Shown here piece by piece: positions 1-4,934 of a stretch of DNA of 4,974 bases; the stretch's first letter is position 1, and each line of letters starts with the position of its first letter. Below the pieces are notes generated by a model that was given only the letters and a program-made list of their open reading frames with translations, was not told where the DNA came from and did not search any database. A program made the translations under genes and the position numbers. This DNA is from a virus (lineage: Duplodnaviria; Heunggongvirae; Uroviricota; Caudoviricetes), in the IMG/VR virus record IMGVR_UViG_2654587568_000009. One strand, written 5' to 3'.

Positions 1-252
1 GTGCCGTTGTCAGCGGCGCAGCCGGGCGATGTGCTGCTGTGCTGTTTTGGTTCATCGGTGCCGAATCACGCCGCAATTTACTGCGGCGACGGCGAGCTGC
101 TGCACCATATTCCTGAACAACTGAGTAAACGAGAGAGGTACACCGACAAATGGCAGCGACGCACACACTCCCTCTGGCGTCACCGGGCATGGCACGCATC
201 TGCCTTTACGGGGATTTACAACGATTTGGTCGCCGCATCGACCTTCGTGTAA
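1..252 (+). CDS. K: Tail assembly protein K, C-terminal 83 codons (5' end lies upstream of the window; the GTG at position 1 is not a real start)
   Basis: Frame-1 ORF runs open from the window edge to TAA at 250-252. The translation (...DVLLCCFGSSVPNHAAIYCGDGELLHHIPEQLSKRERYTDKWQRRTHSLWRHRAW...) matches my recollection of the C-terminus of lambda gpK (NlpC/P60-type tail-tip assembly protein). It overlaps the start of the next gene exactly as K overlaps I in lambda. Confidence 0.85.
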   Translation: MPLSAAQPGDVLLCCFGSSVPNHAAIYCGDGELLHHIPEQLSKRERYTDKWQRRTHSLWRHRAWHASAFTGIYNDLVAASTFV

Positions 253-791
253 AAACGGGGGCCGAAGCTATCCGTGCGCTGGCCACACAGATCCCGGCGT
301 TTCGTCAGAAACTGAATGAGGGCTGGTATCAGGTGCGCATTGCCGGGCGTGATGCAGGCGAAACCGAATTATCTGCCCGTCTTAATGAGCCGCTGGCAAA
401 TGGTGCCGTGATCCACATTGTGCCGCGTCTGGCGGGTGCCAAAAGTGGCGGTGTTTTTCAGGCAGTGCTGGGTGCGGCGCTGATTGCTACGGCAATCTGG
501 ATGCCGGGAATCAGTATCGCTTTCAGTGACATTCTCTTTTCTATGGGGGCAGCGATGACGCTTGGTGGTGTTGCACAGATGCTGGCTCCTAAACCCCAAA
601 CCCCCCGAACGCAGACAACGGATAACGGCAAACAGAACACCTATTTCTCCTCACTGGATAACATGGTTGCCCAGGGCAATGTTCTGCCTGTTCTGTACGG
701 TGAAATGCGCGTGGGGTCACGCGTGGTTTCTCAGGAGATCAGCACGGCAGACGAAGGGGATGGTGGTCAGGTTGTGGTGATTGGTCGCTGA
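150..791 (+). CDS. I: Tail assembly protein I (tail tip assembly), 213 aa
   Basis: ATG at 150 preceded by a purine-rich GAGAGAGG (131-138); stop TGA at 789-791. The translation (MAATHTLPLASPGMARICLYGDLQRFGRRIDLRVKTGAEAIRALATQ...VAQGNVLPVLYGEMRVGSRVVSQEISTADEGDGGQVVVIGR) is recognisably lambda gpI-like at both ends. The start overlaps the K reading frame by 103 nt in a different frame, as in lambda. Confidence 0.9.
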   Translation: MAATHTLPLASPGMARICLYGDLQRFGRRIDLRVKTGAEAIRALATQIPAFRQKLNEGWYQVRIAGRDAGETELSARLNEPLANGAVIHIVPRLAGAKSGGVFQAVLGAALIATAIWMPGISIAFSDILFSMGAAMTLGGVAQMLAPKPQTPRTQTTDNGKQNTYFSSLDNMVAQGNVLPVLYGEMRVGSRVVSQEISTADEGDGGQVVVIGR

Positions 792-851: not shown

Positions 852-3800
852 ATGGGCAAAGGAAGCAGTAAGGGGCATACCCCGCGCGAAGCGAAGGACA
901 ACCTGAAATCCACGCAACTGCTGAGTGTGATTGATGCCATCAGCGAAGGGCCGATTGAAGGTCCGGTGGATGGATTAAAAAGCGTGCTGCTGAACAGTAC
1001 GCCGGTGCTGGACAGTGAAGGGAATACCAACATCTCCGGTGTCACGGTGGTGTTCCGGGCCGGTGAGCAGGAGCAGACACCGCCGGAGGGATTTGAATCC
1101 TCCGGCTCCGAGACGGTGCTGGGTACGGAAGTGAAATACGACACGCCGATCACCCGCACCATCACGTCGGCAAACATCGATCGTCTGCGCTTTACCTTCG
1201 GTGTGCAGGCACTGGTGGAAACCACCTCAAAGGGGGACAGGAATCCGTCGGAAGTCCGCCTGCTGGTTCAGATACAACGTAACGGTGGCTGGGTGACGGA
1301 AAAAGACATCACCATTAAGGGTAAAACCACCTCGCAGTATCTGGCCTCGGTGGTGGTGGATAACCTGCCGCCGCGCCCGTTTAATATCCGGATGCGCAGG
1401 ATGACGCCGGACAGCACCACAGACCAGCTGCAGAACAAAACGCTCTGGTCGTCATACACCGAAATCATCGATGTGAAACAGTGCTACCCGAACACGGCAC
1501 TGGTCGGCGTGCAGGTGGACTCGGAGCAGTTCGGCAGCCAGCAGGTGAGCCGTAATTATCATCTGCGCGGGCGTATTCTGCAGGTGCCGTCGAACTATAA
1601 CCCGCAGACGCGGCAATACAGCGGTATCTGGGACGGAACGTTTAAGCCAGCATACAGCAACAACATGGCCTGGTGTCTGTGGGATATGCTTACCCATCCG
1701 CGCTACGGCATGGGGAAACGTCTTGGTGCGGCGGATGTGGATAAATGGGCGCTGTATGTCATCGGCCAGTACTGCGACCAGTCAGTGCCGGACGGCTTTG
1801 GCGGCACGGAGCCGCGCATCACCTGTAATGCGTACCTGACCACACAGCGCAAGGCGTGGGATGTGCTCAGTGATTTCTGCTCGGCGATGCGCTGTATGCC
1901 GGTATGGAACGGGCAGACGCTGACGTTCGTGCAGGACCGGCCATCGGATAAGGTGTGGACCTATAACCGCAGTAATGTGGTGATGCCGGATGATGGCGCG
2001 CCGTTCCGCTACAGCTTCAGCGCCCTGAAAGACCGCCATAATGCCGTTGAGGTGAACTGGATTGACCCGAACAACGGCTGGGAGACGGCGACAGAGCTTG
2101 TGGAGGATACGCAGGCCATTGCCCGTTACGGTCGTAACGTCACGAAGATGGATGCCTTTGGCTGTACCAGCCGGGGGCAGGCACACCGCGCCGGGCTGTG
2201 GCTGATTAAAACAGAACTGCTGGAAACGCAGACCGTGGACTTCAGCGTGGGCGCAGAAGGGCTTCGCCATGTACCGGGCGATGTCATTGAAATCTGCGAT
2301 GATGACTATGCCGGTATCAGCACCGGTGGTCGTGTGCTGGCGGTGAACAGCCAGACCCGGACGCTGACGCTCGACCGTGAAATCACGCTGCCATCCTCCG
2401 GTACCACGCTGATAAGCCTGGTTGACGGAAGTGGCAATCCGGTCAGCGTGGAGGTTCAGTCCGTCACCGACGGCGTGAAGGTAAAAGTGAGCCGTGTTCC
2501 TGACGGTGTTGCTGAATACAGCGTATGGGGGCTGAAGCTGCCGACGCTGCGCCAGCGACTGTTCCGCTGCGTGAGTATCCGTGAGAACGACGACGGCACG
2601 TACGCCATCACAGCCGTGCAGCATGTCCCGGAAAAAGAGGCCATCGTGGATAACGGGGCGCACTTTGACGGCGACCAGAGCGGCACGGTGAATGGTGTCA
2701 CGCCGCCAGCGGTGCAGCACCTGACTGCCGAAGTCACCGCAGACAGCGGGGAGTATCAGGTGCTGGCGCGATGGGACACACCGAAGGTGGTGAAGGGCGT
2801 GAGCTTCCTGCTCCGTCTGACCGTAACAGCGGACGACGGCAGTGAGCGGCTGGTCAGCACGGCCCGGACGACGGAAACCACATACCGCTTCACGCAACTG
2901 GCGCTGGGGAACTACACGCTGACAGTCCGGGCGGTAAATGCGTGGGGGCAGCAGGGCGATCCGGCATCGGTATCGTTCCGGATTGCGGCACCGGCAGCGC
3001 CTGTCACTATTGAACTGATACCAGGGTATTTTCAGATAACAGCGGTCCCGAAACTGGCTGTATATGACCCGACGGTGCAGTTTGAGTTCTGGTTCTCGGA
3101 AAAGCGGATTATCGATATCAGGCAGGTTGAAACCAGCGCGCGTTATCTTGGTACGGCGCTGTACTGGATAGCCGCCAGTAGCAATATTAAGCCGGGTTAT
3201 GATTATTACTTTTATATCCGCAGCGTGAACACCGTAGGTAAATCGGCATTTGTGGAGGCCGTCGGTCGGGCGAGCGATGATGCGGAAGGTTATCTGAATT
3301 TTTATAAAGGGTTGATCAATAAAACGCATCTCGGCAAGGAACTGCTGGAAAACTTTGAGCTGACGGAAGATAACGCCAGCAAACTGGAGGAGTTTTCGAA
3401 AGAGTGGAAGGACGCTAACGATAAATGGAATGCCATGTGGGGCGTCAAAATTGAGCAGACCAAAGACGGCAAACATTATGTCGCGGGTATTGGCCTCAGC
3501 ATGGAGGACACGGAGGAAGGCAAGCTGAGCCAGTTTCTGGTTGCCGCTAACCGTATCGCGTTTATTGACCCGGCAAACGGGAATGAAACGCCGATGTTTG
3601 TGGCGCAGGGCAACCAGATATTCATGAATGACGTGTTCCTGAAACGCCTGACGGCCCCCACCATTACCAGCGGTGGCAATCCACCGGCATTTTCCCTGAC
3701 ACCGGACGGAAAGCTGACTGCTAAAAATGCGGATATCAGTGGCAGTGTGAATGCGAACGCCGGGACGCTCAACAACGTCACGGTAAATGAAAACTGTACG

Positions 3801-4265
3801 ATTAAGGGCATGCTGGAGGCGACCCAAGTCAGAGGGGACTTCGTTAAAGCTGTATCCAAATCATTTCCGAAACAGGCTGGTACGTGGGGTAACACGGAAA
3901 CACCAAACGGGACGGTTACAGTCACCATCAGCGATGATCATAACTTTGACCGTCAAATCATTATTCCGCCCATTATCTTTAACGGAATAGCGTATAGCTA
4001 TCCGGGAAGTGGTAATAACCCGGGAGGTACAAGGTACACGGGTTATGGTTTTGAAGTTCGCAAAAACGGTGTATTAATCGCATCCAGAGAAACTAAAGGG
4101 GCCATTCCCGGTAGTTACAGTGCGGTTATTGATATGCCGAGTGGCAGGGGAAGCGTCACTCTGGAGTTTAAGATTTTCCAGAAAGGCAATCAGGGGGCAG
4201 GCAATATCACCGACTGTACGGTGATTGTGACCAAAAAAGCGGCTTCCGGCATCAGTATTCGTTGA
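852..4265 (+). CDS. J: Host specificity protein J (central tail fibre / tail tip), 1137 aa
   Basis: Uninterrupted 3414-nt ORF. ATG at 852 is preceded by GGAG (840-843) with an 8-nt spacer; stop TGA at 4263-4265. The N-terminus ([45 protein letters not shown]...) and most of the length match my recollection of lambda gpJ (about 1132 aa). The central region contains fibronectin type III-like repeats, and the C-terminal ~160 aa occupy the position of the receptor-binding domain. Confidence 0.95.
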
Positions 4266-4286
4266 AATTGTTATAACCCATATAAG

Positions 4287-4312
4287 GGCACCAGAAATGG
4301 TGCCTTTTTTAT
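4287..4312 (+). terminator. Rho-independent (intrinsic) terminator downstream of J
   Basis: 7-bp stem GGCACCA (4287-4293) / TGGTGCC (4298-4304) closing a GAAA (GNRA-type) tetraloop (4294-4297), followed immediately by TTTTTT (4305-4310) and ATT. It sits 22 nt after the J stop codon. Confidence 0.75.
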
Positions 4313-4334
4313 TGCAGAAAAGCGAGAGGTAATT

Positions 4335-4934
4335 ATGCGTAAAGTTTGTGCAGCCATTTTGTCCGCAGCCATCTGTCTGTCCGTATCCGGTGCGCCTGCA
4401 TGGGCGTCTGAACATCAGTCCACACTGAGCGCGGGGTATCTTCATGCCCCGACGAACGTTCCCGGCAGCGATGATCTGAACGGGATTAATGTGAAATACC
4501 GTTATGAGTTTACGGACACGCTGGGGCTGGTGACGTCATTCAGCTATGCAGGAGACAAGAATCGCCAGCTGACCCGTTACAGCGATACCCGCTGGCATGA
4601 AGATTCTGTGCGTAACCGCTGGTTCAGCGTGATGGCGGGGCCATCTGTGCGCGTGAATGAATGGTTCAGCACGTATGCGATGGCGGGTGTGGCTTACAGC
4701 CGTGTGTCGGCTTTTTCCGGGGATTATCTCCGCGTAACTGACAACAAGGGGAAAACGCACGATGTGCTGACCGGAAGTGATGACGGTCGCCACAGTAACA
4801 CGTCTCTGGCGTGGGGGGCTGGCGTGCAGTTTAACCCGACCGAATCCGTGGCCGTTGATGTCGCTTATGAAGGCTCCGGCAGTGGTGACTGGCGCACTGA
4901 CGGTTTCATCGTGGGTGTCGGTTATAAATTCTGA
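4335..4934 (+). CDS. lom: Outer membrane protein Lom (Ail/Lom/PagC/Rck family 8-strand beta-barrel), 199 aa
   Basis: ATG at 4335 with RBS GAGAGG (4324-4329) and a 5-nt spacer; stop TGA at 4932-4934. The N-terminus MRKVCAAILSAAICLSVSGAPAWA-SEHQ is a typical Sec signal peptide with an AxA cleavage motif. The C-terminus ends in ...GFIVGVGYKF with a terminal Phe, the beta-barrel outer-membrane protein signature. The sequence is recognisably lambda Lom-like, and its position immediately after J matches lambda. Confidence 0.93.
   Translation: MRKVCAAILSAAICLSVSGAPAWASEHQSTLSAGYLHAPTNVPGSDDLNGINVKYRYEFTDTLGLVTSFSYAGDKNRQLTRYSDTRWHEDSVRNRWFSVMAGPSVRVNEWFSTYAMAGVAYSRVSAFSGDYLRVTDNKGKTHDVLTGSDDGRHSNTSLAWGAGVQFNPTESVAVDVAYEGSGSGDWRTDGFIVGVGYKF

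Follow-up and report, generated by a model that had tools for sequence, protein, structure and literature searches.

Does the fall in GC content within gene J of a lambda-type prophage mark the joint of a recent exchange, or is it a property of the gene? The question is raised by a stretch of 4,974 nt (called the window below; the term covers the whole stretch that was analysed), which comprises the 3' end of K, I, J, a terminator-like hairpin and lom. A first-pass annotation of these letters had pointed to a GC drop in the 3' third of J, from about position 3000 onward, and had read it as suggestive of a mosaic recombination joint. The features to which the analysis refers are as follows.

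1–252, plus strand: 3' end of the tail-tip assembly gene K (C40 peptidase family); ORF, named K or C40 family peptidase in the aligned records
150–791, plus strand: tail assembly gene I; ORF, named after matching records; GC 0.567, GC3 0.556
852–4265, plus strand: gene J, tip attachment/central tail fibre protein of 1137 aa; ORF, Pfam series and alignment with lambda gpJ
852–2984, plus strand: GC-rich part of J (aa 1–711), hub domains and FNIII-1; GC 0.595, GC3 0.73
2982–3383, plus strand: divergent patch that covers FNIII-2 and runs into the first part of the alpha-helical shaft; GC 0.49, the left edge coinciding with the GC change point
3384–3803, plus strand: lambda-like allele of the alpha-helical shaft and the beta-prism fibre; Pfam Phage_Tail_Tip at aa 845–972, GC about 0.52
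3804–4265, plus strand: receptor-binding domain (RBD) cassette of the 434 type; Pfam Ig_GpJ_C at aa 1001–1136, GC 0.48, GC3 0.49
4284–4317, plus strand: terminator-like hairpin between J and lom; hairpin proper at 4284–4307, with a T-run
4335–4934, plus strand: lom (Ail/Lom outer-membrane protein); ORF and annotation of matching records, GC 0.56

Gene I overlaps the end of K, as it does in lambda, and in mEp460 a rho-independent terminator is annotated at the place of the J/lom hairpin. Lambdoid phages matched the whole window over its full length at 93–95%. In a search of 5,426 complete E. coli genomes, a prophage of EPEC E2348/69 and two other strains matched best (98.5%); about 16,500 matching places turned up in 4,987 E. 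coli genomes. Downstream, the E2348/69 prophage carries nleH and a truncated cif pseudogene.

Assignment of J to the Lambda gpJ Family

Six Pfam families were detected above the cut-offs in J, arranged as in lambda gpJ and spanning aa 86–1136 (FNIII-A_GpJ, Phage-tail_3, Ig_J, Ig_J_second, Phage_Tail_Tip and Ig_GpJ_C). The alignment of aa 1–1136 with residues 1–1131 of the solved lambda gpJ chain 8iyk_J gave E = 0 and 2283 bits. On the grounds of the domain series, the full-length homology and the K-I-J-lom gene order, J is assigned to the lambda gpJ family. The structural domains described for gpJ are the hub domains, FNIII-1, FNIII-2, the alpha-helical shaft, the beta-prism fibre and the RBD (PMC11101478).

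The likeness to lambda gpJ (PDB 8IYK and 8XCG–8XCK) includes the K-I-J-lom order, the Pfam series and a GC step at the FNIII-1/FNIII-2 boundary, with 95.3% nucleotide identity over nt 1–2970 of J. The two differ in the FNIII-2 patch, diverged by about 14% in the window, and in the RBD, which is unalignable at the DNA level (about 50% identity in the codon alignment); the protein encoded here is also 5 aa longer.

GC Content along J

The drop near position 3000 was confirmed by sliding-window GC and GC3 as well as by change-point tests. Calculated over 200 nt, GC varied between 0.52 and 0.66 in the 852–3000 part, with a local peak of 0.635–0.66 at 2600–3000. Past this point, it was 0.46–0.495 (3000–3500), 0.54–0.555 (3500–3800) and 0.445–0.49 (3800–4300), so that the drop was uneven, with two troughs and a partial recovery between them. 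The maximum-likelihood single change point for the GC content of J was position 3001 (0.598 on the left and 0.493 on the right, LLR 17.7) and that for GC3 was codon 702 (0.73 vs. 0.56, LLR 17.8); for the latter, 300 shuffles of the codons gave a mean LLR of 2.6 and reached 8.2 at most. The mean GC per 60-nt line was 0.594 to the left of 3000 (n = 34) and 0.494 to the right (n = 21; Mann–Whitney p = 1.2e-6). Two such lines quoted in the first-pass annotation were found as written, with GC of 0.40 and 0.42. Its wording that many lines past 3000 have 40–45% GC was right about the presence of low-GC lines and slightly overstated their extent, since the range was 0.40–0.60.

The GC Step in Related J Genes

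For comparison, J and 19 other lambda-type J genes were aligned codon by codon, the resulting panel of 20 covering three deep N-terminal lineages (lambda-like, Stx-phage-like and Salmonella Fels-1) and about ten receptor-binding ends. The hub part of the deep lineages showed 56–92% nucleotide identity to J per 40-codon window. The GC step was present in all 19 relatives, lambda and Fels-1 included, with GC of 0.62–0.65 over aa 560–711 and 0.51–0.56 over aa 712–839. In the aa numbering of the J studied, the genes' own change points fell at 716–725 in 14 of the 20 and at 741–808 in the remaining six. The best change point in these 6 of 20 genes lay 25–90 codons further downstream, which was counted against a step at one place. 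Lambda, profiled independently, fell from 0.62–0.63 to 0.51–0.54 at the matching place. Six further intact copies (Shigella flexneri, E. ruysiae, Escherichia sp. and E. coli) all carried the step as well, with change points at 716–725; the sample sharing it, 20 panel genes and 6 copies, is small beside the thousands of J genes available.

Because the same step was found in lambda and in all the relatives examined, it is ancestral to the clade and the view of the drop as the joint of a recent exchange was not borne out. The step predates the divergence of all the Escherichia, Shigella and Salmonella copies examined. The explanation that we favour, and consider likely as a whole, is that the GC step is an ancestral trait of the lambda-type J genes of these three genera and not a recombination scar, that the distal part of J reassorts among phages and that two exchanges have affected the J studied.

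Outside the clade, a universal GC drop after the hub of J-like genes was rejected as mEp237 (HK97-like), Serratia Bigdog and Tls-like Mishu gave flat profiles. Edwardsiella J displayed a weak drop only (LLR 6.5). Xenorhabdus J genes with a homologous FNIII-2 (38–42% aa identity) displayed none and their GC rose distally in most cases, indicating that the fold does not dictate the step. No earlier description of a family-wide intragenic GC step in J was found in the literature searched, which does not prove it undescribed, and the family-wide step is a small descriptive point. It carries a caution, in that a GC step within a gene is not in itself evidence of recent exchange; the real joints in J emerged only when relatives were compared.

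Amino Acid and Codon Contributions to the Step

The difference in GC between aa 1–711 and aa 712–1137 amounted to 0.097, of which 0.044 was due to amino acid composition and 0.053 to codon choice. The distal part contained more Ile, Lys, Asn, Phe and Ala and less Val, Arg, Leu, Gln and Asp, and its two-fold codons were AT-richer. When composition was followed as GC3 by codon class, the GC3 of four-fold families was 0.79 in the hub and remained nearly level up to aa 984, at 0.70 and 0.78 in the two segments that follow (lambda 0.77 and 0.83). The GC3 of other degenerate codons changed from 0.62 to 0.39–0.49 across the step and GC1+2 from 0.53 to 0.46. The RBD was the only segment with a lower four-fold-family GC3 (0.56 here, 0.69 in the lambda RBD). 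Being almost constant as far as aa 984, four-fold-family GC3 speaks against a simple 'foreign DNA' origin of that part. We conclude that the GC step is a clade-specific, domain-linked property of mixed causes.

A Divergent Patch in FNIII-2

Over 2982–3383, J diverged from lambda, Perceval and PhiR49_1 by 14–15% (57–60 of 402 sites), compared with about 3% elsewhere. A likelihood scan for this patch gave LLR of 37–39 vs. a maximum of 10.8–12.5 in 200 permutations and placed its left edge at 2982–2985 and its right edge at 3368–3383 (3443 against lambda). Within 128 codons, lambda differed from the patch at 57 nucleotides and 18 amino acids. A domain boundary is the common location of the left edge and of the GC change point, which explains why they lie no more than 20 nt apart. 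Typing of segments put J, on either side of the patch, into type A along with lambda, Perceval and mEp460, but in aa 712–840 it stood alone. The clustered divergence and the incongruent allele types identify the patch, at the level of sequence, as a recombinant mosaic segment within J.

Compared with the common allele, the patch was AT-biased (28 vs. 11–13 sites), which made the GC step in this gene the largest of the panel (0.150, with 0.069–0.127 in the others). Only about 0.04–0.05 of this step is added by the patch; without it, a step of about 0.10 would still be there.

The E2348/69 prophage carries the same patch allele, with zero mismatches over 2925–3449. Its gpJ (WP_000515449.1) also has the same RBD type and its DNA is 98.5% identical over the whole window; it differs by 48 scattered substitutions in J (76 in the whole window) and comes from a different strain. 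Of 4,517 E. coli records, about 212 carried an allele at least 95% identical to the patch and 4,242 had alleles of 80–90% identity. The FNIII-2 allele is therefore a minority type, common to this prophage and to the EPEC prophage with nleH and the truncated cif pseudogene. Among the phage matches listed for the patch none exceeded 89.1%, and three further records fell in the 90–95% band. An exact 28-mer of the patch had no match in a collection with one genome per species. In a protein scan of the one-genome-per-species collection, the best match outside the E2348/69-like group was 89% (Shigella and E. coli). Many protein matches to the patch at 86% were lambda itself in unrelated assemblies and say nothing on origin.

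Beyond the patch, identity over the 3384–3803 region, measured in 40-codon windows of which the last started at aa 941, was 90–98% with lambda and 92–99% with Perceval, Stx2c and PhiR49_1.

The RBD Cassette and Its Predicted Receptor

Homology to lambda stopped at 3772–3821 and homology to five other phages at 3797–3809 (aa 982–986). The RBD, aa 985–1137, was 93.5% identical in amino acids and 91.6% identical in nucleotides to that of lambda h434, and the cassette was common to the Perceval, mEp460, cdtI, PhiR49_1 and Stx2c phages at 89–100% nucleotide identity. By sequence, the RBD is of the 434 type and not of the lambda type. The J gene of 434/lambda h434 has the same length (3414 nt) and its hub part is 97.5% identical to that of J, whereas identity in the patch (2985–3368) is 85.4%. 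Since 434 J directs binding to OmpC (PMC3509688), the 434-type RBD predicts OmpC, not LamB, as the receptor of the J studied.

Reassortment of Distal Segments at Domain Boundaries

The GC step coincided with the junction of the Pfam domains Ig_J (610–714) and Ig_J_second (716–818), corresponding to the FNIII-1/FNIII-2 boundary (aa 714/716). The soluble fragment gpJ713, used in the complex with LamB, begins at residue 713 (PMC11101478). Distant homologues, such as the F2 pyocin fibre and T1-like and other siphophage J-like proteins, aligned to aa 4 to about 700 only. Allele typing of the panel revealed just three types in complete linkage over aa 1–580 and 5–10 types per segment, reassorting among phages, from aa 581 on. 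The GC-poor third of J is a mosaic zone in the whole family. The general idea of a mosaic 3' part was thus correct, with the divergent patch from 2982–2985 and the non-lambda RBD cassette from about 3772–3809, and the intuition behind the first-pass annotation has a basis in this loose sense.

Homologous recombination that gives mosaic blocks with edges by domain boundaries is established for lambdoid phages, which, according to the modular genome hypothesis and relaxed homologous recombination, swap tail-fibre and host-range segments. The pattern in J resembles this exchange in its segment-wise reassortment and in joints at conserved stretches and domain edges; it is unlike it in that the compositional step marks no single exchange. 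The hub-coding part, which has a high GC3 like the K fragment and unlike gene I, would be inherited as one linked block, and homologous recombination at conserved stretches would allow phages to swap the distal segments (FNIII-2, helical shaft, beta-prism fibre and RBD) freely. Such recombination between lambdoid phages and prophages that reside in, or infect, the same cell probably produced the near-identical flanks around diverged blocks, with selection then retaining only those joints that keep domains intact. Exchange with a lower-GC pool may help to hold the distal part AT-richer. Chi sites were rejected as the reason for the joint, GCTGGTGG being absent from both strands of the 4,974-nt window.

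Possible Origins of the Step

Import of the whole 3' third (3000–4265) from a lower-GC donor in one recent event, with the GC drop as the footprint of a single joint, would account for an AT-biased patch that starts at 2982–2985, within 20 nt of the change point, and for an RBD unlike that of lambda. It is nevertheless very improbable, as all the panel members, lambda and Fels-1 among them, have the step at this position and the patch explains only about 0.04–0.05 of the 0.15 step. Moreover, the 3384–3800 region is 90–99% identical to lambda-type alleles and was not imported with the patch or with the RBD, so the 3' third did not arrive as one piece. An old event, in which a hub gene rich in GC was fused once to an AT-richer fibre gene in the ancestor of the clade and left the step as a compositional fossil, agrees with the different ancestry depth of the two parts, since the homology of distant siphophage and F-pyocin proteins is confined to aa 4 to about 700, and with the flat profiles of the HK97-like, T1-like and Serratia J-like genes. 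Yet four-fold sites differ by 0.44–0.62 (JC 0.66–1.3) between the deep lineages (J or lambda vs. Fels-1 vs. the Stx type), a heavy load of substitutions, if short of full saturation, under which most of a passive fossil should have been erased. As far as aa 984, the GC of four-fold sites also hardly differs between the two sides, and the distal segments are many reassorting alleles and not one old block, which leaves the fusion with hardly any likelihood.

A constraint acting purely on the protein, under which the distal domains need amino acids with AT-richer codons and recombination is irrelevant to composition, fits the location of the step exactly on a domain boundary and the 0.044 of the 0.097 drop that stems from amino acid composition. 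The lower GC1+2 (0.53 to 0.46) and the smaller share of four-fold-family codons (0.55 to 0.45–0.48), whose GC3 is almost level to aa 984, point the same way. This constraint is, on the other hand, at odds with the Xenorhabdus J genes, in which a homologous FNIII-2 (38–42% aa identity) occurs with no drop. For the same amino acids, AT-richer codons are used distally (0.053 of the drop; GC3 of other degenerate codons 0.62 to 0.39–0.49), and four-fold-family GC3 also falls, to 0.56, in the 434-type RBD. As the sole cause it is considered unlikely. The FNIII-1/FNIII-2 boundary might also separate, throughout the family, a hub passed on vertically from a set of freely exchanged distal cassettes, whose low GC would be actively maintained by recurrent exchange with a broader, AT-richer phage gene pool. 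We regard this as a tentative and rather doubtful idea; if true, an intragenic compositional step would predict where host-range modules of siphophage tail tips can be swapped.

With the step taken as an ancestral trait, the exchanges detected in J conform to what is well known of lambdoid phages, namely a mosaic distal J and a swapped host-range end, and the finding is one of ordinary lambdoid J mosaicism. The reassortment zone at the domain edges (aa ~712, ~840 and ~985) may help in the design of chimeric J proteins, although it adds little to the known modularity of J.

A long antisense ORF running across the step was also considered as a hidden gene and rejected. It is in phase with J and is explained by rare TTA, CTA and TCA codons, and it is broken in the Stx-type and Fels-1 genes.

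Composition and reading frames of J

The highest GC of the window (0.635-0.66, with GC3 up to 0.83) was found at 2600-3000, in the FNIII-1 domain of J, immediately ahead of the GC drop inside the gene at about 3001 (the GC step). A climb in GC across FNIII-1 before the drop was common to all members of the panel of 19 other lambda-type J genes, and this local peak therefore accounts for part of the contrast at 3000 that the first-pass annotation had noticed by eye.

The opposite strand of J carries a long open frame, exactly in register with the J codons, with the GC step falling inside its span:

Window 1782-3860, minus strand: antisense open frame (681-aa ORF at 1782..3827; stop-free run of 692 aa)

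A gene in this frame was considered and rejected: the frame, although long in lambda too (705 aa), was interrupted in the Stx-type and Fels-1 genes (232-433 aa). The sense codons TTA, CTA and TCA were nearly missing from the window J (six in the whole gene), which explains the length of the frame. Given this rarity and the interruptions in the Stx-type and Fels-1 genes, the antisense frame is a by-product of codon usage.

Length of the alpha-helical shaft

A length polymorphism of the shaft at window position ~3359 (J aa 836) was noted in L004, L006-L012, L014, L015, L017 and L018. In most of the cdtI/Stx-type J genes the shaft was longer by about 22-28 residues, which include a repeat-like motif (…EIRTSITDVSNEITQT…), and in the PhiR40_1 J by about 95, whereas the window J, like lambda J, has the short shaft. 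Since this part of the protein refolds in the course of infection, its length may matter.

Gene surroundings of J

The I-J intergenic space served in relatives as a landing site for extra genes, whereas in the window it spans only 60 nt. A terminator-like element was present on the other side of J:

L006 840-1367, reverse strand: sodC in the I-J space of Stx2_EH1846
L016 832-1356, reverse strand: ORF similar in size to sodC in the I-J space of Fels-1
L010 1-1386: IS66 transposase genes in the I-J space of Stx2a_1447
Window 4284-4317: 10-bp hairpin followed by a T-run, between J and lom

In mEp460, a rho-independent terminator is annotated at the position matching this hairpin. Despite the element, lom begins 18 nt after the T-run in unchanged orientation.

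Relatives and copies in public genomes

No full-length match of at least 99% to the window was detected in 5,426 complete genomes, the closest chromosomal relative being the E2348/69 prophage (98.5%). After its tail genes, this prophage carries nleH, which encodes a type III effector, and a cif pseudogene that is truncated (L020 9689-10974); thus, the window may derive from an effector-carrying prophage of attaching-effacing E. coli.

J segments 86% identical to the diverged patch of the window J (2982-3383), the identity that lambda's own allele also has to it, were found in L027-L041 (e.g., L031, L032 and L036), in assemblies of the unrelated genera Neobacillus, Kitasatospora, Pseudomonas, Shewanella, Bradyrhizobium and Paenibacillus. 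Several sit on contigs of ~48.4 kb and some on contigs whose names give ~1x coverage, which looks like contamination of public assemblies with lambda control DNA.

In several J copies of Shigella flexneri and E. coli (L047, L050, L066 and L026), the stop-free frames around FNIII-2 were short (33-650 aa), marking these copies as decayed prophage remnants. Such remnants keep recognisable distal J segments and could be donors for their exchange.
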